Assembly: GCA_902781315.1 (NCBI GenBank)
Contig: CACZIT010000008.1
Span: 4,176 to 68,175, forward strand
Length of the DNA: 64,000 nucleotides
DNA from: an uncultured Prevotellaceae bacterium
Lineage (GTDB): Bacteria; Bacteroidota; Bacteroidia; Bacteroidales; Bacteroidaceae
Reading direction: 5' to 3'
Below are positions 4,107 through 49,962 of the stretch, piece after piece. The notes beneath the pieces are model-generated. The model was given only the letters and a program-made list of their open reading frames with translations. It was not told where the DNA came from and did not search any database. Numbering within the stretch: position 1 is the stretch's first letter; every line of letters begins with the position of its first letter. The translations under genes were made by a program, and so were the position numbers.

Positions 4107-4120
4107 CCTTTATCTTTTTG

Positions 4121-4224
4121 TTACTTTGTTACCTTGTTACTTTGTCACTTTGTTACTTTGTTGCCTTGTTACTTTGTCACTTTGTTACTTTGTTACCTTG
4201 TTACCTTGTTACCTTGTCACTTTG
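4121..4224. repeat. Tandem array of 13 octamers T(T/C)AC(T/C)TTG
   Basis: Directly visible; overlaps the pyrK stop codon. Confidence 0.95.
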
Positions 4225-24155: not shown

Positions 24156-25184
24156 CTATCGGCCAACGAGCAGCCGCCCTATCTCATTCAGGGCCACGAA
24201 TCGATAGCGATTAGAATGATGAGGAATAGGAGCATAACTGTAGTGCTTGGCTTCTGCCTTCCTGCGGAGGACATCCTCGGCTGCTTTTACTATCAACGGA
24301 GCTTCGTATGCACTCTCTTTGGGTTCCAAGAGCAACAGCCGCCCTTTTGAACAAGCATCGAAATAGACTCCGCCCGGCTTGTAGTACCGCTCATGGGGCG
24401 AACCTTCGGCAGGAAAGCCATCAGCCAAAAGCACTACCAATGGGTAGCCCTGCTCGCGTATGTATCTGGCGATCTGTCGCTCACCGCCGCTGATGGCAGC
24501 CGTGTAGGTGACGGCTCCATTATGTGCTGCAGCCAGCACTTCTTTCTGCCGCTCAGCAATATGACTGCTGTCAGCGCTTCGCGACATCTTCACCAGTTGA
24601 CGGTCAGGCCAGTCCAAAAGGAAATGGTTGCCCATTGAAGTGAAGGGCAAACCACAAAGTACGGTCTCTCTGTGCATGCGAAATAACTCCGGGTTCTGCC
24701 TTCGCTGCCAGGCTCGTTCAGCATTTGCGTAGACATATTCAATCATTGCATGCAGCTGCCCTTTATGGGTGAGCACCCTATAATAAGGAGGGCCATCGTA
24801 CAGATTGTCCACGATGCCCAGCTTGCGCGCCTCTGCCTTGCAACCCTGCATATATCCGCGCAACACCTCCTTTATGCTTCGCGGCATGGTTCGCATAACC
24901 TGTAACACGATGTGATGATGATCGGGCATCACTTTGTCGGCCAATATCTTTACCTCCGGACAAAGCTCCAGCATGCGGCGCTGCTGATTGATGAGTGCCC
25001 ACCCGATGGGTGTTTTCTCGACTACGGCATTGGCTCCATCGTGCGCAAGTGTGCCGAACAGTAGCTGTCGTGATTTCGCCACCATCGTCACATGCACAAT
25101 GCATGGCTTACGCCATACACTGGGTTCCAGCCACGAAAAGGTTTCGCGTAGAGAGTCCGTCGGTTCTTTTTTGGTATTAGGCAT
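24156..25184 (-). mobile_element. Y1/HUH (IS200/RAYT-like) tyrosine transposase fused to a DprA/SLOG-like C-terminal domain
   Basis: VMPDHHH (HUH position) and EYVYAN (catalytic Tyr position); C-terminal AISGGE...YPLVVLLADGF...GRLLLLEP; flanking hairpins. Confidence 0.75.
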
Positions 25185-32768: not shown

Positions 32769-32840
32769 GACAATAGCATCATCTACTGCCATTCCCTTTT
32801 CACTTACTATTTCATTTTGATTCGACCTCTTGTTACTTTG

Positions 32841-34424
32841 TTACTTTGTTACCTTGACATGGCTTCGCCAGCCGTAGACCATGATGATAAGGAAGCAAAC
32901 GAATGGCAGCACGTAGGAGACGTTCACGGCGGGATGGCCGCAGATGGTCTGCTGGTCAATAATCATGCCTTGCAGAGGTGGCATCAGGGCTCCACCTACG
33001 ATGGCCATCACGAGGAAGGCTGCGCCGAGGGTGGTGTCCTGGGCGTCTACATTCTCGAGGGCGATGCCATAGATGGTGGGGAACATGAGCGACATGAAGA
33101 AGCTGATGCCCACGAGGCAGTAGAGTCCCACCATGCCCACGATGCAGATGGCGCCGAGCGAGCACAGGGCGGCTCCGATGGCAAACACCGAGAGCAGCAC
33201 GCGCGTGTTGACATAGCGCATGAGGAACGTTGAGATGAACCTGCTGCAGAGGAACAGCGACATGGCGACGATGTTGTACATCTGCGCCGTAGCTTTGTTG
33301 ATGCCCAGATAGTCGGCATATTGAATAATGAAGGTCCACGTCATGATCTGCGCGGCCACGTAGAACATCTGTGTCACCACGCCCTCGCGGTAGATGCGGT
33401 TGTGCCAGAGGTTGGAGAGGGTGTGGGCGATAGAGGGAGACCCTCCCCCCTGCCCCTCCCGGGCCTCTCCCCCAGCCCCTCCCCTATAGGGAGGGTAGCT
33501 TTGGAGGGGAGTAGTATGCCCTACTGTTTGTTGTGCTTGCTCTGAAGAGTAATCACTCCCCTCCCTCGCAGGGAGAGTCTTCTCGTCTTTGATGAGCCAT
33601 GCAATCAAGAAAGCGACAGCAACCACAACCAGTCCGATGGCCACGTAGGGATTGCGTATCACGGCGAGGTCGTGCAGACGGATGTCGGCTTTCTCGGCCT
33701 CAGAGAGCAAGGGGAAGATAATCTGTCCGGCGGCGTCGCGCTTGTCGCTGATGAGCTGTGGCAGCACGATGAGCGAGGCCACGGCCATGCCGCAGAGCGA
33801 GCCCATGGGGTTGAAAGCTTGCGCGAGGTTCAGTCGGCGGGTCGACGTCTCCTTCGAACCCAGCGAAAGGATGAATGGGTTGGCAGTCGTCTCGAGGAAA
33901 GCCAGGCCGAACGTCAGGATGTAGAGCGACAGGCAGAAGAACAGGAAACTCTGCTGCTGGGCGGCGGGTATGAAGAGGAACGCGCCGATGGCATAGAGGG
34001 CCAGTCCGAGCAGGATGCCCCGCTTGTAGCTGTAGCGGCGAATGAACAGGGCTGCCGGCACGGCCATCGTAGCGTAGCCGCCATAGAAGGCGAACTGCAC
34101 CATCGACGCCTTGGCAGCCGAAAGTTCCATGACGGTCTGGAAGGCTGCCACCATCGGGTTGGTGATGTCGTTGGCAAAGCCCCACAGCGCAAAGAGCGAT
34201 GTGATGAGGATGAAGGTCAGGAGGTACTTGCGGGGTACAAGGGCAGACTCCGCAACCTCTGCAGACCCACTCCCCTGCCCCAGAGACCCACCCCCCAGCC
34301 CCTCCCGGGCCTCTCCCCCAGCCCCTCCCCTATAGGGAGGGTAGCTTTGGAGGGGAGTAGATACTCTTGTTTGGTTGTTTTCTAAACTGTTGTTCATATT
34401 CGGTTTGATTTCATCAATTGGCAT
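32841..34424 (-). CDS. fucP: L-fucose:H+ symporter (MFS) with two in-frame palindromic inserts
   Basis: FILITSLFALWGFAN, AFYGGY, LETTANP, RRLNLAQAFNPMG, SLMFPTIY, AIVGGALMP; downstream of fucI. Confidence 0.92.
   Translation of the reverse strand: MPIDEIKPNMNNSLENNQTRVSTPLQSYPPYRGGAGGEAREGLGGGSLGQGSGSAEVAESALVPRKYLLTFILITSLFALWGFANDITNPMVAAFQTVMELSAAKASMVQFAFYGGYATMAVPAALFIRRYSYKRGILLGLALYAIGAFLFIPAAQQQSFLFFCLSLYILTFGLAFLETTANPFILSLGSKETSTRRLNLAQAFNPMGSLCGMAVASLIVLPQLISDKRDAAGQIIFPLLSEAEKADIRLHDLAVIRNPYVAIGLVVVAVAFLIAWLIKDEKTLPAREGSDYSSEQAQQTVGHTTPLQSYPPYRGGAGGEAREGQGGGSPSIAHTLSNLWHNRIYREGVVTQMFYVAAQIMTWTFIIQYADYLGINKATAQMYNIVAMSLFLCSRFISTFLMRYVNTRVLLSVFAIGAALCSLGAICIVGMVGLYCLVGISFFMSLMFPTIYGIALENVDAQDTTLGAAFLVMAIVGGALMPPLQGMIIDQQTICGHPAVNVSYVLPFVCFLIIMVYGWRSHVKVTK
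33439..33579. repeat. Compound palindromic insert in the FucP central loop
   Basis: Contains a 63-bp block (33452-33514) identical to 34298-34360. Confidence 0.9.
34264..34362. repeat. Compound palindromic insert in the FucP N-terminus
   Basis: Encodes TPLQSYPPYRGGAGGEAREGLGGGS. Confidence 0.9.
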
Positions 34425-42284: not shown

Positions 42285-45200
42285 TTATTTGCCCTGACGC
42301 GACCAGTGGAACACCAGATGCAGCATGACGTAGTGAGGCAACGAGCGATAGCACGTCACGGTGCGCCCCATGGCGTTGATCTCGTAGTGGGTGTCCGACA
42401 GCTGGTGCAGCAGGTCGAAAGCCTCGAGGCGGGCTATGAGTTTGCCGTTGAGGAACGGCTGGCTGAGCGAGGCATTGACAATGAAGTCGTCGGACCGCTC
42501 CCCCCGCCCTCCCCAAAGAGGGAGCCCGCCGCTGCCGTAGCGGCGGCCGTACATCATGGCATCGGCGGCCAGCGTGAGGCCACCTATCTTCGTGCCCCAA
42601 AGGGCAGGTGTGGTGTAGGTGGCTTCGAGGCCGTAGTGATAGTCAAGGGCACGGAGCGTGGTGAAATCATACATTTTGCCATCGCTGTGACGCCAGTTGA
42701 TGTAGCCCACGGCGCGGAGGTTCAACGTCTTGCGGTGGAAGCGTATGTTGCCGCCGCTGCTGAGCGCGAGCGTGTTCACGGTGTTCACCTGGCTCGCCGC
42801 CATGCCTGCCAGCATGGCGTGGTCCTTGGCATGGTTCCAGTCGACGCCCGCATCGACGTACCACGTCCAATAGCGTTTCTTGCCGATGCTATGGTCGGTG
42901 CTGAAATTGGCGTGGGCGTCGTAGGCACCGCTGACGTTCATGGGCTTAAAGGTGCTGACGCCCGTGGCGGGGTCGTAGGCCAGCGACTGCGCGATGTCGC
43001 GATGATGATAGCTGAACGAGGTTGAGGCGTGGTACATGCCACCAGCCACTTCCTTGCCATCGTAGTAGCTAATGCTTAGGTTCGTCTGTGCAGAAGGCTT
43101 CAGGTCGGGGTTGCCCAACTTCACGACGAGTGGTTGGCTGTCGTCGCGGTAGCTGATGCGATTCAGTATTTCGGCTGCTGTCTGGCGGTAGCTGATGCGG
43201 ACCTGCAGGTCGCGACGTGAGTCTTTCCACACGTTGCGATAGCGGAAGGAAGGATTGGGGAAGATGGCCGTCTGACGCGCCAGCGTGTCGAGGCTGCCAC
43301 GCCGGTAGCGCAGTCTGTAGAAGTGCATGGGCACTTGCAGCTCTAAGCGCCAGCGGTCGTAGTTCACTTTCATGTGGGCTATGCTATGGGTATAATGACC
43401 CGTTTTGTTCAGGCTGAACGTCATGTCGTTCTGCTGGGTCGTGGCACGGCTCTCATAGGAGTTGGCAGGGTCGAGGGTGGCTGCGATGGCATCGATCTGC
43501 GAAGGAAGGAGCGGGTCGGCAGGTTCTGCCTCTCCCGTGGGACCGACCGTAGAGGCTGGGTGGTAGAGGTTGTCGCGGCTGTGGATGCGCAGATAGGCCA
43601 TGAGGTCGGAGATGCCGAAGTGCAGGTTGTGCCCCAGTTCCTTGCCGAAGCCCAGACTGAGGAGGGCTGCAGCATTGCGTGAGTACAGGCTGTTGGCATT
43701 GCGTGTCTCCACATCCGCCGGAGCCGTTGTCACCTTGTTACTTTGATACTTTGTTACTTTGTCACCTTGGTACCCTGTTACTTTGTCACCTTGGTACCCT
43801 ATTACTTTGTCACCTTGGTACCCTGTTACTTTGTTACCTTGGTACTTTGTTACTTTGAAAACTTCGCCCTGCTCGCCTTCGTCGTTGCTGAGGTCCAGAT
43901 GGGTGTAGAAGTCAAGGTGCTGGTTCTGCCGCCCCACCCTAACGCTGCCCTGGGCATCGAGACTGGCTGCCCACTTGGTGCCACGGCTGATGCCTACGGT
44001 GCGCTGGGCGATGCTGAGCGTGTCGGTGGTCTCCTGAAAGGCCGAATGCGTGGCACCGTTGCGGCGTGTGTGGTTGAAGTCGGCTTCAATGTTCATGTAG
44101 GTGGGTAACTTCAGCGTCAGACTGTTATGCAGCGACCAACGGCGATTGCCCATCTTGCGGAACGACTCGGTGAAAGCCGTAGGCGTAAGACCACCCACGA
44201 ACCGCTCCTGATGCTGGTTCATGGTCTGTGCGTCGGTGGTAGAGGTGTATTCCCCACGCAGCGTCTCCTTCAGCTTGTCGCCTTCAGAGTGGTAGCTGAG
44301 TTCCGAAGCCGCACTGCGCGTGGTGATGATGGAACGAGGCATACGCGCCGGACTCCATTGCCCCGTCTGACCGGCATGCCGCGTCTCGTTCACGTTGTTT
44401 GCATTGGCAAGCACGGTGAGCCGGAGCTTGTCGGTGAAGCCCAGCAAGAAGCCACGCCCCAGATAAGCCCTCTCGGAAGGAGCCCCCTCCCTACTGGGGA
44501 GGGTCGGGGTGGGGCTCGCCGCTGCTTCCACGTTTGCAATGTAGCCCTGGCTGTATTCGTCCTTCAGGTTCACGTCCATCACGTAGCGGCGTGGTTCAAC
44601 ATCGTAGCCCAAGGCCTCGCTCTTGTCGGTTTGCTTCTCATAGACCTTCAGGTTTTTCACGGTGTAGTAAGGCAGGTTCTCCATCAGCACCTTCTTGTTT
44701 CCGCCGAAGAACGAGCGCGAGCCCAGCAGCAGCTCGTCGACCTTGCGCCCATTGACGAAGATTTCGCCCTGGTCGTTCAGCGTAACGCCGGGCAGCTGGC
44801 GGATGAGGTCGTCGAGCATGGAACCCTCGGGCAACTGGAAGGCCGTGGCATCGTAGACGAGGGTGTCGCCGCGATAGTAGAACTTCACGCGGGTGGCCGT
44901 CACCACGACTTCGTCGAGGTTCAGGTTACGCATCTTGCGCATCTGCAGTGTTCCGATGTTGATGTCTTCGGTTGCCTGTCGTCCTACCGACACCCGTTTC
45001 CACACGTCGTCATAGCCCTTGAGCTGAGCACGGACGAGATAGTCGCGCCCGGTCCTGACCTTGGTTCCGAAGTGGGCTTTGGTGATGCGGTTGTCGCCGT
45101 TGAGGAAATAGATGATCTGCAACGAGTCGGCAATGACGACCGAGTCGGCTGTGAGCACCGACACCTTCGCTTTCGTGAGGGGCCGCTTCAGGAAGCTGTC

Positions 45201-45533
45201 CTCCACATCGCCTGAGAGGTCGACAGTCTGCACCTTCGGCACTTGCCGCTTCTTCATCTGCACGGCGATGTGGCGGCCGCGCACCTTCACCTTCACGGGC
45301 AGCCCACGGCAGAGGCGCTTCACGGCGTCGGGTGCCGCAAGCCCGGTGACCTTGGCCGTGGTGTGCAACCGGTCGAGCCCGTCGGAAAGGATGTCGATGG
45401 TGTATTCCGGCTGGCTGCGGCCGATGGTCTGCAGGGCGTCGAGCAACGGCACCTCGCGGAAGGTCTGTGCCACAGCGCTGCTGAACGAGAGCAGCGACAC
45501 GGCGAGCAGGAGGAGGATTCTTGGTTGCTTCAT
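42285..45533 (-). CDS. Outer-membrane beta-barrel receptor with STN-like N-terminal signalling domain and three repeat-derived inserts
   Basis: Start MKQPRI at 45533 (ATGA overlap with the upstream gene); RGDTLVYDATAF.LPEGSML motif; C-terminal LPHYVMLHLVFHW. Confidence 0.85.
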   Translation of the reverse strand: MKQPRILLLLAVSLLSFSSAVAQTFREVPLLDALQTIGRSQPEYTIDILSDGLDRLHTTAKVTGLAAPDAVKRLCRGLPVKVKVRGRHIAVQMKKRQVPKVQTVDLSGDVEDSFLKRPLTKAKVSVLTADSVVIADSLQIIYFLNGDNRITKAHFGTKVRTGRDYLVRAQLKGYDDVWKRVSVGRQATEDINIGTLQMRKMRNLNLDEVVVTATRVKFYYRGDTLVYDATAFQLPEGSMLDDLIRQLPGVTLNDQGEIFVNGRKVDELLLGSRSFFGGNKKVLMENLPYYTVKNLKVYEKQTDKSEALGYDVEPRRYVMDVNLKDEYSQGYIANVEAAASPTPTLPSREGAPSERAYLGRGFLLGFTDKLRLTVLANANNVNETRHAGQTGQWSPARMPRSIITTRSAASELSYHSEGDKLKETLRGEYTSTTDAQTMNQHQERFVGGLTPTAFTESFRKMGNRRWSLHNSLTLKLPTYMNIEADFNHTRRNGATHSAFQETTDTLSIAQRTVGISRGTKWAASLDAQGSVRVGRQNQHLDFYTHLDLSNDEGEQGEVFKVTKYQGNKVTGYQGDKVIGYQGDKVTGYQGDKVTKYQSNKVTTAPADVETRNANSLYSRNAAALLSLGFGKELGHNLHFGISDLMAYLRIHSRDNLYHPASTVGPTGEAEPADPLLPSQIDAIAATLDPANSYESRATTQQNDMTFSLNKTGHYTHSIAHMKVNYDRWRLELQVPMHFYRLRYRRGSLDTLARQTAIFPNPSFRYRNVWKDSRRDLQVRISYRQTAAEILNRISYRDDSQPLVVKLGNPDLKPSAQTNLSISYYDGKEVAGGMYHASTSFSYHHRDIAQSLAYDPATGVSTFKPMNVSGAYDAHANFSTDHSIGKKRYWTWYVDAGVDWNHAKDHAMLAGMAASQVNTVNTLALSSGGNIRFHRKTLNLRAVGYINWRHSDGKMYDFTTLRALDYHYGLEATYTTPALWGTKIGGLTLAADAMMYGRRYGSGGLPLWGGRGERSDDFIVNASLSQPFLNGKLIARLEAFDLLHQLSDTHYEINAMGRTVTCYRSLPHYVMLHLVFHWSRQGK
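43730..43857. repeat. Sixteen-octamer array translated in frame (KVTGYQGD-type repeats)
   Basis: Same octamer family as 4121-4224; every unit in the stop phase reads TAC or TAT instead of TAA/TGA. Confidence 0.95.
44480..44515. repeat. 37-bp-family palindrome, in frame (SPTPTLPSREGAPS)
   Basis: GAGCCCCCTCCCTACTGGGAGGGTCGGGGTGGGG; a more degenerate copy is at about 42495-42528. Confidence 0.75.
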
Positions 45534-48500
45534 TGCTTCTTCGGTTGTTTGTTCAGTCGGTACACCACGTGCAGCAGGGCGTAGCGGGGCATGACGTTGG
45601 TCCAGGTCTCGGTGCGTCCCTGGGCATTGAGGGTCCGGGTGACGTTGCTGAGCTGGCCGAGCAGGTCGAAGCCATCGAACACGACGAGGAGCCGGCCCTT
45701 GAAGAAGGGGCGAGAGAGGCGTGCGTTCCACACCAGGTCGTTGGTGTTCAGCGCCTCGTCGGCATAGCCCGTGCGTGAGTAGAGGGTGAGGTCGGTCGAG
45801 AGGTCGAGCTTCCAGGGCAGCTTCAAGATGGCTGCCAGCGAGGTGCGGCAGGTGAAGGCGCTGAAGTCCTGGAAGTCCGGCCGATCGCTGCTGAGGCGTT
45901 CCCACACGGGTTGGCAGACGAAGTCGAAGTGGTGCTTGCCGATGTCGGCCTTGAACGAAGGCAACATCGAGATGGCGAGGCGCTGGACTTTAGAACGCTG
46001 GGGACCAGTCGGCATCGCGGCATCACTGGCCGTCGTACCCACGAGGTCGACGCTCTGGCTGTGGGTGACGTGGAAGGGGAGGTCGAGATTCAGTTTCTTG
46101 GTCGAATCGAGGGCGCAGTGGAAGGTGTAGCCGGCATCGGTGGTGTAGTTGCCGTTGACGTTCTCCGGACGGTAGGTGCGTGCACCCGTCCGGACGTCGT
46201 AGGTGCAGCCCATCGCAATGGCATTGAAAGTGCGCTTTTGGTGCCATTCCATGTAGTGATAGCCTCGCTTGAACCTATAGACGCCATTTACACCGAAGTC
46301 GGGCGTGACTGACGGATGCAGGCGGGTGTTGCCCAGCCGGATGTTCATCGGGTCAGTGTCGTCGCGCAGGTCGATGCGTTGCTCCAGTGCGGGCAGCACC
46401 TGACGAACGCCCATGGTCATCCCTATCTGGCCGTTCTTGAAGTCGAGGTAGGTGTTGTCGTCCATGGTGATACTGACGGCAGTGCGGCAGAGCGTGGTGT
46501 CGATGCTGCCGCGCTGGTAGTCGAGGTGCTGTTGGTGGAGGGTGATGTTGCCGTTGAGCAGCGTCCATATCTGGCCGTACCGAGCCTTGTTGAACTTATA
46601 GCCGAGGTTGATGTCGAGCCGGTGGCTGTTCTCGCGCATGCGACTGTCGAAAGTGTTGGTGCTGTCCATCACCTGCTGGTAGTCGGTCATGGAGGGCAGG
46701 TCGTCGATGGCTGCAGGTTCCTCGTTCAGGCGGTCGAGCAGGTAGAGCGACGAGCGGCGGTGGCGCCAGTTGTGGGTGAAGTAGTAGGTGGCGTGGATGG
46801 AGCGCCAGCCCTCGCCCAGCGGGATGTTGTAGCCTGCGGTGGCTTGGATGGTGCCGCTGCGGTCGGGGTGGTTGTCGGTGAAGTGGTGGAAGGAGGTGGA
46901 GGGGTGCTGTGATACAGCACCATACTCCACCGACTGGCGGCTGAAGAGGTGCTCGTCGCGGTCGCTGTAGCTGAAGGTGGCACCGAGGCGCAGGTTCTCG
47001 TTGGAGTGCGGAATCTTCACCGTGGCTCCGGTGTTGAACGTTCCCTCGAGGGCATGTCCACGGCCGAGGCCCTGCCGCAGAATGCGGTTGACGAGCGTGT
47101 CGCGCAGGTTGACGCGTGAGGCCGTGGGACTGAACAGCTCGTCGAGCAACCGTCGGCTGACGTCGGCTACGGGCGCGTTGAAGGTGGCTGAGGCAAAGTC
47201 AGAGCTGTGATTGAAGTGGTGGTATTGCAGGTTGGGACTGATGTGCCAGCGCACACTCTTGTGATTGCGGTAGAAGTCGTGATAGGAGCTCAGGCGCAGG
47301 TCCTCGTTGCGGCTGTTGCTGAAGCTATGGTCGTAGAGATCTCCCGATGGCAGGTAGTTTTGGCGCACGGTGCGCGTCTCGCCTTCCGTCCGCTGGTGGT
47401 TGACCGAGGCATCGCCGCGATACTCCCACCGCTTGTTGCGGTCGCTGACCCAGAAGCTGAGGTCGGCCCGCTCGGTGCGGCGCAGGGCGTCGCCGGCACG
47501 CTGCCAGTTGTCGCTTTCGCCTGGCTTGCTGTCGTCGTCGAGGTTGTTGGCGTTGGCAACGATGGCCAGTCGCGAGAAGTCGCTGTGGCGCATGGCGAAG
47601 AGACGGGCCAGGTAACGGTCGCCAGTGCCGGCTCCCACCTCGGCGTTGGCAATCCAGCCCACCATGTACTCCTTCTTCAGCCTGACGTCGATGACGTGGC
47701 GCTGGGTTTGCAGGTCCTTGATGCCGAGCCACTCGTTCTCGTCGGTCTGCTTGTCGTAGATGGCTATGTCCTTCACGGTGTAGGCAGGCAGGTTTTCGAG
47801 CATGAGCTTGCGGTCGTTGCTGAAGAACTGCTTGCCGTTGAGGAGCAGGTCGTCGACGAACTTGCCCTCGTGATAGATGCGGCCGTCGCGCTTCAGCTCA
47901 ACGCCTGGCAGCTGACTGATGAGGGCGTCGAGCATGGAGCCTTCGGCCAGGATGAAGGCATCGGCATTATAGATAATGGTGTCGCCCTTGTAGTAGAACT
48001 TCACACGGGAGGCCGTAACCGGCACTTCGGGCAGCATGGTTGAGACAGGAGCCAGATAGAGCGGAGGCAGCGACCGCTCGTGCTCGCGACGGCCTACGCG
48101 CTCCAGCTTGTAGTCGACGTAGGCCGTGCGGTGGCCCACGAAGCTGATGCGGAATATGTACTTGGCGGGCAGGGCGGGCACCGTGAAACTGAATTCGCTG
48201 GTCTCCCACTCGTATACCTTCCCATCTTCACCACTGCCCCACCAGTGATGCTTGGCTACAGCCTGCTGCAGCACTGTGCTGTCGGCATCGAGCAGCTCGA
48301 CGGTGGCACCGATGAGCGGCTTGTGGGCGCGGATGTCCTGCACCTCGCCATTCAGCTTCAACTTTCTGACCTCCCGCCGCTTGTCGTATTGCACGGTGAT
48401 TTTACGCCCGTGCACCTTCACCTTCACGGGCAGCCCACGGCAAAGCCGCTTCACGGCTTCGGGTGCCGGGAGTCCCTTCACATTGGCCGTAGTGCGCAGG

Positions 48501-48679
48501 TCGCCGAGACCATCAGAGAGGATGTCGATGGTGTATTCCTGTTGGCTGCGGCTGATGCTCTGCAGGGCTGGGAGCAGGGAGACAAACCTGTCCTGCTGAG
48601 CCAGCGACGCTGTCGGAAGCACGGTGTTCAGGGTCGTAATGAATAATAAAAATATAAAAAGGTGCGACTGCTTCTTCAT
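45530..48679 (-). CDS. Outer-membrane beta-barrel receptor with STN-like N-terminal domain (paralogue of the downstream gene)
   Basis: Start MKKQSH at 48679; KGDTIIYNADAFILAEGSMLDALI motif; C-terminal PRYALLHVVYRL. Confidence 0.85.
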   Translation of the reverse strand: MKKQSHLFIFLLFITTLNTVLPTASLAQQDRFVSLLPALQSISRSQQEYTIDILSDGLGDLRTTANVKGLPAPEAVKRLCRGLPVKVKVHGRKITVQYDKRREVRKLKLNGEVQDIRAHKPLIGATVELLDADSTVLQQAVAKHHWWGSGEDGKVYEWETSEFSFTVPALPAKYIFRISFVGHRTAYVDYKLERVGRREHERSLPPLYLAPVSTMLPEVPVTASRVKFYYKGDTIIYNADAFILAEGSMLDALISQLPGVELKRDGRIYHEGKFVDDLLLNGKQFFSNDRKLMLENLPAYTVKDIAIYDKQTDENEWLGIKDLQTQRHVIDVRLKKEYMVGWIANAEVGAGTGDRYLARLFAMRHSDFSRLAIVANANNLDDDSKPGESDNWQRAGDALRRTERADLSFWVSDRNKRWEYRGDASVNHQRTEGETRTVRQNYLPSGDLYDHSFSNSRNEDLRLSSYHDFYRNHKSVRWHISPNLQYHHFNHSSDFASATFNAPVADVSRRLLDELFSPTASRVNLRDTLVNRILRQGLGRGHALEGTFNTGATVKIPHSNENLRLGATFSYSDRDEHLFSRQSVEYGAVSQHPSTSFHHFTDNHPDRSGTIQATAGYNIPLGEGWRSIHATYYFTHNWRHRRSSLYLLDRLNEEPAAIDDLPSMTDYQQVMDSTNTFDSRMRENSHRLDINLGYKFNKARYGQIWTLLNGNITLHQQHLDYQRGSIDTTLCRTAVSITMDDNTYLDFKNGQIGMTMGVRQVLPALEQRIDLRDDTDPMNIRLGNTRLHPSVTPDFGVNGVYRFKRGYHYMEWHQKRTFNAIAMGCTYDVRTGARTYRPENVNGNYTTDAGYTFHCALDSTKKLNLDLPFHVTHSQSVDLVGTTASDAAMPTGPQRSKVQRLAISMLPSFKADIGKHHFDFVCQPVWERLSSDRPDFQDFSAFTCRTSLAAILKLPWKLDLSTDLTLYSRTGYADEALNTNDLVWNARLSRPFFKGRLLVVFDGFDLLGQLSNVTRTLNAQGRTETWTNVMPRYALLHVVYRLNKQPKKQ

Positions 48680-48702: not shown

Positions 48703-49275
48703 TTATTCCTCGTCCGTCGACTCCTCCTCCACGACAATGGTATCGCTCTGCAAGCTCAGGCTCAGGCCGTCGAAGGCATTCAGGCGGTCGAGGAAGTCGG
48801 CAAGCGATGCGTCGGGTTGCCACGTCATGATGAGTTTCATGCCGCGCAGGTCAGCATTGCGGAAGCTGACGGCCTTGCCATAGTGAGCTGACACCACGGC
48901 GAGGATGCTGTCCAGCGGCACGTTGTCGAAGGCGACAGGCATCTCGTCATGCTGTGCGGGCGTTGCCACTTCCACGCTTTGCGCGTCTCGGCTCGTCTCG
49001 CCGCTTGGAGGGGTGTTGGGGGTGAGGCTCATCCATGCGGCAACCGCGATGCCGGCAAGGAAGAGGGAGCCGACAAAGATGGCCGCGATGCGCAGCCAGC
49101 GATGCGACGGTTTCACGGCCGGGCCCATGGTCTGCTCAAACCGCTCCCATGCTGCCTGGGCATCGAGGTCGCTGTCGAGGTCGTCCATCATGGCCTCCAA
49201 CTGCTCGTCGGAATAATTCTCAGGGTGTTCCTGCATGTCGAGAAACAGCCTCTTATGGTCATCAATAGGTATCAT
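48703..49275 (-). CDS. FecR-like anti-sigma factor (DUF4974-type C-terminus)
   Basis: One TM (WLRIAAIFVG); C-terminal FDNVPLDSIL..VSAHYG; directly after the ECF sigma. Confidence 0.8.
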   Translation of the reverse strand: MIPIDDHKRLFLDMQEHPENYSDEQLEAMMDDLDSDLDAQAAWERFEQTMGPAVKPSHRWLRIAAIFVGSLFLAGIAVAAWMSLTPNTPPSGETSRDAQSVEVATPAQHDEMPVAFDNVPLDSILAVVSAHYGKAVSFRNADLRGMKLIMTWQPDASLADFLDRLNAFDGLSLSLQSDTIVVEEESTDEE

Positions 49276-49802
49276 AGCGTTTTCGGATTAAAATGTTTCT
49301 TGATTTCGTTGAGTGCGTGCGACAGATGTTTCCACACGGCCACGCGGCTGATGCCTTCGGCCGAGGCTATCTCGCTGTAGCGGAGGCCGTGGGTAAAGCG
49401 CTGATTGAGGATGCGCTGCTCCTGCTCCGACAGATGGCTGGCGGCAAACGCCATGATCTCGGCTATCAGCGCGTCGTCGTCGTCAGCAGCATCGGCAGCG
49501 ACGGCAAGCTCAATGCCAGGGGTGCCGAGGGGCTGTCCGCCGCTGGCGATGCCCAGCCACGGTCTGCGTCTGAGCACCTTCAGGCAGCGGTTGCGGACGC
49601 TCGTCAGCAGGTAGCGCTCACAAGCCTCGTCTTGCCAGTCGGCGGTGCCGGCCGAGAGCGCCGTCCGTCCGCGCAGCAAGCTTTCGAAGATGTCGCTGAT
49701 CACATCCTCGCCAGCCTGCTCGTCGTATAGTATCGTACGGGCCACACGCTGCATCTTGCCATAGTGCTGCACGAACAGCCTCGCCAGTGTTTCTTGTTCC
49801 AT
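49272..49802 (-). CDS. ECF sigma factor
   Basis: LFVQHYGKM, YLLTSVRNRC, GLRYSEIASAEGISRVAVWKHL. ATG at 49802 preferred. Confidence 0.9.
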   Translation of the reverse strand: MEQETLARLFVQHYGKMQRVARTILYDEQAGEDVISDIFESLLRGRTALSAGTADWQDEACERYLLTSVRNRCLKVLRRRPWLGIASGGQPLGTPGIELAVAADAADDDDALIAEIMAFAASHLSEQEQRILNQRFTHGLRYSEIASAEGISRVAVWKHLSHALNEIKKHFNPKTL

Positions 49803-49804
49803 GT

Positions 49805-49844
49805 TCACTTTGTCACTCTGTCACTTTGTTACTTTGTTACTTTG
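49805..49844. repeat. Five octamers T(T/C)ACT(T/C)TG
   Basis: Directly upstream of the sigma start codon. Confidence 0.9.
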
Positions 49845-49962
49845 TTAATAACCCAACAGACACAGAAAATGCTAACCCATAAAAGGCTTTTTCTTTGCAA
49901 AAATACAAAAAAGGAATAACATATTTGGCAGTCTTGTTATTTTTATATAGTTTTGCAACAGA

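Follow-up and report, generated by a model that had tools for sequence, protein, structure and literature searches.

A stretch of 64,000 nucleotides (nt) of contig CACZIT010000008.1 (positions 4,176 to 68,175 of the forward strand, assembly GCA_902781315.1), here called the window, belongs to the genome of an uncultured rumen Prevotella (3.52 Mb in 60 contigs, 54% GC) and contains a gene for an outer-membrane barrel receptor in which a tandem repeat of the octamer GTAACAAA is translated. It is likely that this lineage-specific 8-nt microsatellite became coding sequence of the receptor and that it now forms a loop of variable length, changing in frame by steps of 24 nt. The elements on which this reading is based are the following, all on the reverse strand.

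42285 to 45533, reverse strand: host gene, 1082 amino acids, with an OMP_b-brl_3 barrel of the TonB-dependent-receptor type (open reading frame and Pfam).
43725 to 43856, reverse strand: octamer array translated as residues 560-603 of the barrel protein (Tandem Repeats Finder, sequence, codon-by-codon reading and unit list).
43746 to 43844, reverse strand: span of the five stop-phase codons, with TAC at 43842-44, 43818-20, 43794-96 and 43770-72 and TAT at 43746-48.

Tandem Repeats Finder places the array at 43727-43857 and describes it in two registers, as 16.4 copies of period 8 with 72% matches and as 4.4 copies of period 24 with 93% matches (score 184). On the gene strand it consists of 16 units of the GTAACAAA type, arranged as 5.5 copies of a 24-nt unit coding for KVTxYQxx. 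Blocks 1 and 2 read AAA GTA ACA AAG TAC CAA GGT AAC / AAA GTA ACA GGG TAC CAA GGT GAC, blocks 3 and 4 read AAA GTA ATA GGG TAC CAA GGT GAC / AAA GTA ACA GGG TAC CAA GGT GAC, and block 5 with the end of the array reads AAA GTA ACA AAG TAT CAA AGT AAC / AAG GTG ACA; the encoded peptide is K V T K Y Q G N / K V T G Y Q G D / K V I G Y Q G D / K V T G Y Q G D / K V T K Y Q S N / K V T. Since 8 is not a multiple of three, every third unit of such a repeat would put TAA or TGA in frame. In the register of GTAACAAA, where positions 2-4 make up the codon, these stop-phase units are units 2, 5, 8, 11 and 14, and the consensus octamer gives TAA at each of the five positions; the array has TAC at four of them and TAT at one. 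A preliminary description of this DNA, made from the letters of the window, had reported TAC or TAT in these five units together with the peptide, and the codon reading bears it out exactly.

In the other two phases the TAA or TGA triplet is kept, out of frame, in 11 of 11 units (ten were recovered by the scan, while the eleventh, GTAATAGG, which has three mismatches and fell outside it, was read directly and has TAA). These units are altered elsewhere, from AAG to GGG, from ACA to ATA and from GTA to GTG, so that the earlier statement that only the stop-phase units are edited holds for the stop triplet and fails for the other positions. The derived GGG codon is common to the three inner 24-mers, which are copies of one another; the five edits are not independent and represent perhaps two or three events, three of the five coming from duplication of one 24-mer that was already edited.

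An open frame cannot hold stops, and stop-free units in five out of five stop-phase positions are thus a logical necessity and no statistic in themselves. The informative point is that the units of the other phases keep TAA or TGA at the background rate, as can be seen by comparison with the rest of the genome, in which 73 octamer arrays were counted (three or more units of GTAACAAA or GTGACAAG and variants). In the sense-translated arrays, a set made up of arrays in genes judged real by eye from characteristic motifs, the stop triplet is missing from 25 of 25 stop-phase units (TAC 15, GAA 5, TAT 2, GTA 2, TTA 1), whereas the other-phase units without a stop triplet are 9 of 54, against 37 of 272 units in the remaining arrays (p = 0.53). 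TAC or TAT is found in 17 of the 25 stop-phase units of the sense-translated arrays and in 9 of 272 units (3.3%) of the arrays that are not translated in sense; these variants are therefore not equally common in intergenic arrays, and the initial observation stands.

For the window itself, the absence of TAC and TAT from the four other arrays (4117-4224, 15639-15692, 32830-32856 and 49802-49847), as first described, was found again, with GTAC or GTAT units in none of them; extended to untranslated arrays genome-wide, the claim is overstated, as the variants do occur there at the low rate just given. Two of the four arrays are described here.

4117 to 4224, reverse strand: 13-unit octamer array, the largest untranslated one in the window and used for comparison, with an 8-nt register 87% identical.
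49802 to 49847, reverse strand: untranslated octamer array abutting the start codon of a sigma-factor gene, a non-coding comparison array.

It could be argued that KVTxYQGx is an ordinary peptide repeat of the protein family, either resembling the octamer by chance or being itself the ancestor of the intergenic arrays. When the 44-residue repeat peptide is searched against 1.84 billion representatives, 266 protein clusters with comparable repeats of 8-residue period come up, in apparent agreement with this idea, but the members inspected are for the most part open reading frames called on different microsatellites, and some look eukaryote-like. Sixteen units in a row match GTAACAAA at no more than three mismatches, and 15 at no more than two; the set of variants (GTGAC, CAAG, CAGG) is common to the target and to the 72 other arrays; the homologues of 55-59% identity and the adjacent paralogue are without the segment; and the same octamer peptide occurs in unrelated proteins of this genome only. 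Such a convergence is very improbable, and the array derives from the octamer, with its stop-phase units edited.

The history of the segment can be followed in the orthologues, which were taken from the protein database together with their contigs; a search with the host protein in 40 related species genomes (E ≤ 1e-100) matched only the genome itself. The octamer-derived segment is present at the same position in 37 of 37 orthologous proteins (82-91% identity), and their lengths differ there. The DNA of eight orthologous or homologous loci was read codon by codon; gene-wide, the orthologues are 86-93.5% identical to the query, in a mosaic manner. With five blocks, the query is the longest among alleles with one, two, three and five blocks. 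A single block is found in L003/P0035 (KVTKYQGN-KVTT), two in L004/P0001 (KVTRYQGD-KVTRNQ) and three in both L002/P0027 and L007/P0017, while L006, L008 and L009 have short, decayed versions of the segment. No octamer DNA is present at the site in the 59% homologue L010, and in the protein alignment the other homologues of 55-59% identity have no KVT/YQ-type peptide there.

All length differences among the sequenced loci are multiples of 24 nt. A metatranscriptome contig of 553 nt (X34, 97.5% identical) crosses the array with a clean skip of 48 nt, and an X28 contig also ends 48 nt short, giving the same shorter junction in a second run. The number of 24-nt copies thus varies, and it varies in frame. 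The codon in the stop phase of the sequenced loci is TAC, TAT, AAT, AAC, TTA or CAT, to which the protein alignment adds F and C; judging from these sequences, the former stop position is free to vary (Y, F, C, N, L, H) as long as it is not a stop. Since the mosaic orthologues of 86-93.5% identity all carry the segment, entry of the repeat predates these lineages, and its copy number is still changing.

As to whether the gene is live, the host protein aligns end to end with its orthologues, and the ratio of nonsynonymous to synonymous substitution rates (dN/dS) is 0.13-0.18 between the host gene and seven orthologues, by which the gene is evidently under purifying selection. Contigs of several rumen RNA libraries cover the gene at ≥95% identity, one of them crossing the array, which speaks for its expression, carry-over of DNA being possible. 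Together with the octamer in all orthologues of 82-91% identity and its absence from L010, these data support the earlier proposal that the repeat entered a live gene. The further proposal, that it expanded as a higher-order unit of 24 bp, is likewise supported by alleles of one, two, three and five units that differ by exact multiples of 24 nt and with the GGG codon of the inner units.

An assembly error in the array length, or a pseudogene left open by accident, is hardly credible. It is true that k-mer assemblies break inside the array and that the copy number rests on short junction contigs. These contigs (43560-43783, 43757-43831 and 43805-44200), on the other hand, agree with the sequence at every base in four runs, the middle of the array is fixed by the unique ATA unit, and no alternative joint was seen, while the end-to-end alignment, the low dN/dS and the RNA-library contigs are at odds with a dead gene.

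The register in which the array can slip bears on the choice between a loop of variable length and a genetic switch. Matched to itself at an offset of 8, the target array is 72% identical with at most 8 perfect bases, and at an offset of 24 it is 89% identical with 25 perfect bases; its longest perfect tract is 49 nt in the 24-nt register and 16 nt, that is, two units, in the 8-nt register, neighbouring octamers differing at 2-4 of 8 positions. At offset 8, identity in the window's untranslated arrays is 87-95%, with 15-20 perfect bases and perfect tracts of 23-28 nt. As the 24-nt register of the target array is purer than its 8-nt register, slippage, presumably the mechanism at work, would be channelled into the register that keeps the frame.

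The preliminary description had suggested that changes by a number of units not divisible by three would switch the receptor off, a slip of one or two octamers shifting the frame and silencing the gene. The unit is indeed 8 nt long, the untranslated arrays keep a fairly pure 8-nt register, and repeats of a length that is not a multiple of three are a classical device for phase variation within genes, an example being the CTCTT repeat in the leader of the Neisseria opa genes (PMC3960869). In the target array, however, this register has decayed (0.72), and the contrast between two perfect units and 49 nt in the 24-nt register goes the other way; the reading frame runs unbroken through the site in each of the 37 close orthologous proteins, the length differences that are seen are all multiples of 24 nt, and no contig at 95% likeness has an indel of 8 or 16 nt. 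No out-of-frame allele of 8 or 16 nt was found in the 37 orthologous proteins or in the DNA and RNA contigs of 12 runs, from which rare variants could escape. On/off switching is accordingly an improbable explanation, and, being devoid of a homogeneous tract of such units, the target array falls outside the phase-variable contingency class.

The place of the tract in the protein was assessed from an AlphaFold model with a mean predicted local distance difference test (pLDDT) score of 57.5 and a predicted template modelling score (pTM) of 0.43, in which the barrel half is fair. Residues 556-614 form a loop with pLDDT below 50 between two long strands, 538-555 and 615-634. Along the barrel, long connections (556-614, 656-691, 786-813) alternate with short ones (533-537, 635-636, 716-721, 770-773, 827-832), and the indel hot spots of the family (561-605, 661-675, 951-956, 1001-1014) are all on the same alternate set as the long loops. 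In outer-membrane barrels long loops are outside and short turns are in the periplasm; by this general rule the repeat, lying on the side rich in long loops and indels, would be in an extracellular loop. The tract is thus probably a flexible, extracellular loop, in line with the surface loop first supposed, although the model from which this topology is taken is weak. The best PDB matches of the model in Foldseek are FpvA, FoxA, FhuA and BtuB (E 1e-6 to 1e-4, with a TM score of only 0.2-0.3). For a plug followed by a 22-strand barrel, the model gives these same low TM scores in Foldseek, and its N-terminal half stays under pLDDT 50.

Other repeats are found in the same protein family. In four homologues of 55% identity (P0042, P0051, P0053 and P0057) the same loop contains other repeat-like peptides (DSPPALQDSPPALPVREGAKCTEGS...PSLTGRAGGES), and DSPPALQDSPPALPVREGA is another example of a repeat-derived peptide in this loop of the more distant homologues. 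From the sequences compared, the target loop seems to be a recurrent landing site for different repeat families. The host gene has, in addition, a second insert.

44478 to 44517, reverse strand: second in-frame insert in the host gene, of a different repeat family, a CCCTCCC-CAGTA-GGGAGGG palindrome coding for (S)PTPTLPSREGAP.

This insert adds 12 codons to the otherwise invariant region NVEAAGG-TEERWLGRGF; it is present in the query, P0001, P0003 and P0008 and missing from P0005, P0006, P0011, P0012 and P0028. The core of the palindrome has 35 copies in the genome (≤3 mismatches), and unrelated metagenome contigs pile up at 44483-44517.

TonB-dependent receptors are the classical receptors of phages and colicins. 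The same anatomy could be adaptive, the 24-nt variable-number tandem repeat (VNTR) being a selected contingency locus that is kept since a rapid change of loop length would help the cell to evade phages, bacteriocins or host antibodies docking on this loop of the receptor. Copy number differs even at about 97.5% identity and from lineage to lineage throughout the sample, the barrel has its main indel hot spot here, distant homologues fill the same loop with other repeat-derived peptides, and the complexes of FhuA with T5 and of BtuB with colicin are among the Foldseek matches. Yet no residue of the repeat is conserved beyond recent common descent, and cytoplasmic enzymes, too, have the same octamer in loops (DegT, a MenD-like enzyme, the tail of TrmD), where surface variation is no reason for keeping it; moreover, we know of no phage or ligand for the host protein. 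Selection of this kind is conceivable but unlikely.

The preferred explanation, a microsatellite that has become a coding loop, would run as follows. The octamer would have entered the gene before a group of strains or species split, in an ancestor common to them all; their copies of the host gene are now 86-93% identical. Every third unit would have put TAA or TGA in frame, and in the copy that survived the stop triplet would have been changed to TAC or TAT. Once a single stop-free block of 24 nt had arisen (eight codons, KVTxYQGx, in three octamers), it would have been this block, and not the octamer, on which slipped-strand mispairing or unequal recombination acted to give the present tract, which now behaves as an ordinary in-frame coding VNTR in a loop where insertions and deletions are tolerated throughout the family. 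Beyond the absence of a stop and the keeping of the frame, no constraint is visible on the tract, from which we infer, between neutrality and benefit, that it is most likely a tolerated passenger that makes the length of the loop variable; the variability might still be of benefit, for example against phages or bacteriocins that use the loop as their docking point.

Some points weigh against this explanation. The 47 sequencing runs are stored as Logan contigs, which break inside the array, and all the length differences are between samples or lineages. For the five-block count, the confirming contigs all come from possible source runs of the assembly. The octamer could have come by insertion, by gene conversion from another array or by growth from a short seed. 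With low pLDDT and pTM, the extracellular position of the predicted loop is based on the alternation of loops and on the indel pattern. Finally, the RNA contigs are assembled metatranscriptome sequences of close relatives, for which carry-over of DNA is possible.

The host protein starts with MKQPRILLLL... and has a signal peptide (MKQPRILLLLAVSLLSFSSAVAQ). It matches the Pfam family PF14905 (OMP_b-brl_3) at E = 8e-13, with 48.6 bits against a cut-off of 27, and gave no match in NCBIfam or in a sequence search of PDB. Its named relatives in the databases are from rumen or gut Prevotella, and the runs holding the host-gene sequence are bovine and sheep gut metagenomes. The genes upstream are in the same orientation.

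45530 to 48679, reverse strand: paralogous OMP_b-brl_3 barrel gene, 1049 amino acids, with no octamer array (open reading frame, Pfam, array scan).
48703 to 49275, reverse strand: FecR_C-type anti-sigma protein of the same operon (PF16344, E = 1.3e-5).
49272 to 49802, reverse strand: extracytoplasmic function (ECF) sigma factor, first gene of the operon (Sigma70_r2, Sigma70_r4_2).

The stop of the paralogue overlaps the start of the host gene (ATGA). The sigma and FecR_C genes, directly upstream and oriented as the host gene, provide the link of an ECF sigma factor with a FecR-type protein, and by its gene content the cluster is a FecIRA-like trans-envelope signalling cluster. Only about 2 nt separate the array at 49802-49847 from the ATG of the sigma gene that heads this operon, and consequently the whole proximal 5' leader is microsatellite.

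Coding use of the octamer is not confined to the target gene. In about 13 further genes of this genome (15 arrays) the octamer is translated in sense, and the stop-phase unit is always edited. The arrays are at the following places.

C11:88991-89062, C1:145010-145057, C3:156108-156147, C10:61863, C13:4204, C38:4016 and C28:20855: sense-translated octamer arrays.
C1:151571, C2:173880, C27:4518, C33:13229, C33:18203 and C44:6652: further sense-translated octamer arrays.

The hosts, named from characteristic motifs and not from Pfam, are a MenD-like enzyme, a DegT aminotransferase, the C-terminal tail of TrmD, a CitC/CitG-like protein, GH115-like, GH2-like and alpha-2-macroglobulin-like proteins and a DMT-type transporter; by the same reading, five sense-translated C-terminal domains resemble sorting signals of the type IX secretion system (...GRRVcqGNNVTEYQGNKLPKGIYI...). 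For the conserved DegT, an independent parallel to the target gene, a comparison was made with nine homologues in related genomes (same genus or order): 24 residues are octamer-coded here, against 2-19 in eight of the nine, the ninth (L139) having an unrelated, longer insert, and the QSNKVTK tail of the insert is in none of the nine.

Read on the reverse strand, TTTGTTAC, the octamer is free of stops in all three frames and gives FVTLLLCY. In about 14 genes a start ATG with basic residues precedes a reverse-strand array and a motif resembling a cleavage site follows it, as in MKRYFVTLLLCYFGTLSLCAQS, which stands directly before a GDS(L) motif. From this arrangement, the reverse-strand octamer appears to code for the hydrophobic core of signal peptides in these genes, among which are the following.

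C26:2958-3005 (= L140:359-406), C27:3107-3138, C35:30761-30800 and C45:6992-7015: reverse-strand signal-peptide arrays.
C30:59550-59573, C47:6246-6277, C24:17237-17276 and C3:15198-15253: further reverse-strand signal-peptide arrays.

No change of length was found in the signal-peptide array L140:359-406, which contigs of three other metagenomes span unchanged. A conserved element of about 45 nt (in translation ...LSPLRSESV... or ...FSTSLRKRLLRRRG...) is often found next to an octamer array, as at C27:4518-4557 and its neighbours, C10:34492, C22:49458 and C43:9673, which suggests composite repeat units rather than bare microsatellites.

Perfect matches to four units of the octamer number 30 in this genome and 0 in 40 related genomes, 24 of which are of the same genus. 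Elsewhere the octamer turns up again in a second Prevotella, in other Bacteroidales and across many distant phyla. Perfect GTRACAAR arrays are distributed in patches over Gemmataceae, Caldilineaceae, Saprospiraceae, Longimicrobiaceae, Cloacimonadota and Rivularia, besides other Bacteroidales and Prevotella, and the three-unit pattern has up to 262 matches per genome (loci L011-L129, genomes G041-G044). In a scan of 119 loci of other phyla for translated arrays one possible case was found (L034), the loci having been chosen for perfect arrays that contain stops and being thus biased against such cases.

A Y1/IS200-like protein encoded at 24156-25184 was considered as a generator of the arrays and rejected. 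Its match to Pfam Y1_Tnp falls short of the threshold (E = 0.089). Three genomes of the same genus that have no arrays (G002, G005 and G017) contain homologues, and the array-rich Bacteroidales genomes G043 and G044 contain none, so that no association is seen in this small sample. The thought that the TTTGTTAC arrays might be runs of IS608-type TTAC target sites was also entertained, and no claim is made for it.

Taken together, the two strands would allow a wider reading, which we put forward tentatively and hold to be rather less than an even chance, namely that a single octamer microsatellite seeds new coding sequence genome-wide. The edited sense strand may give hydrophilic loop and tail inserts of the KVTKYQGN type, and the antisense strand may give ready-made cores of signal peptides. 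Chance slippage would account less well than a transferable generator for the patchy distribution of abundant arrays over distant phyla. No published link of octanucleotide repeats with Prevotella was found, and no published description of the target octamer or of such behaviour in Prevotella.

Among known systems, the nearest are the in-frame coding VNTRs of bacterial surface proteins (reviewed in PMC3899988). The target shares with them a 24-nt unit that is a multiple of three, here within an open frame of 1082 codons, differences between strains by whole units and a frame that is kept; its tract sits in a variable part of an envelope protein that would, by the model topology and the indel pattern, be exposed. 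It differs in that its unit is of a higher order, made up of three copies of a microsatellite which is not a multiple of three and which also fills intergenic DNA, and in that it bears the scar (TAA to TAC or TAT) of having been made translatable.

A second comparison is with the Rickettsia palindromic elements (RPEs), which Ogata and co-workers reportedly described in 2000 as inserted in frame in protein-coding genes. In-frame RPEs in protein-coding genes are summarised in PMC10969869. Like them, the octamer is a dispersed family (73 arrays) found inside many unrelated functional genes, in frame, at sites tolerant of indels and with presence or absence between homologues, as seen for the target and for DegT. 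An RPE, however, is a palindromic element of about 150 bp, similar to a miniature inverted-repeat transposable element (MITE), and inserts as one piece; the target array is no discrete palindromic or MITE-like element but a non-palindromic 8-nt microsatellite that needs removal of the stop and can then expand by slippage. The palindromic second insert at 44478-44517 is a closer analogue of the RPEs than the octamer array.

The CTCTT repeats of the Neisseria opa genes lie in the leader peptide and are phase-variable (PMC3960869). Here too a repeat whose unit is not a multiple of three lies inside the gene of an outer-membrane protein, and, much like the opa repeat, the reverse octamer seems to be used for the signal-peptide core of other genes; unlike opa, the target has a decayed octamer register, shows only 24-nt changes and has yielded no on/off alleles. 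In heterocystous cyanobacteria, the short tandemly repeated repetitive (STRR) heptamers are repeats of intergenic DNA. They resemble the octamer in having a unit of 7-8 nt and many scattered intergenic arrays in particular lineages; to our knowledge they have no known generator, they are described as non-coding, and translation with editing of the stop phase has not been described for them. What is new with respect to a coding VNTR or to a selfish repeat inserted in frame is that a microsatellite that is not a multiple of three was first made translatable and then gave a unit of 24 nt, the shortest length divisible by both 8 and 3. The case is a tidy, though not unprecedented, example of repeat DNA becoming protein.

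Its value is that the steps from an intergenic microsatellite of the wrong length to protein can be seen: one change that removes a stop makes a block of three units translatable, and once slippage has moved to this 24-nt block, the hazard of frameshift becomes a safe loop of variable length. For annotation, such tracts are real coding sequence and neither assembly noise nor scars of pseudogenes, and the target locus is a natural VNTR marker for typing strains of rumen Prevotella. The coding use of one microsatellite on two strands, genome-wide, is a newer lead than the target array itself; if this pattern is true, repeat families may regularly supply signal peptides and surface loops in Bacteroidota.

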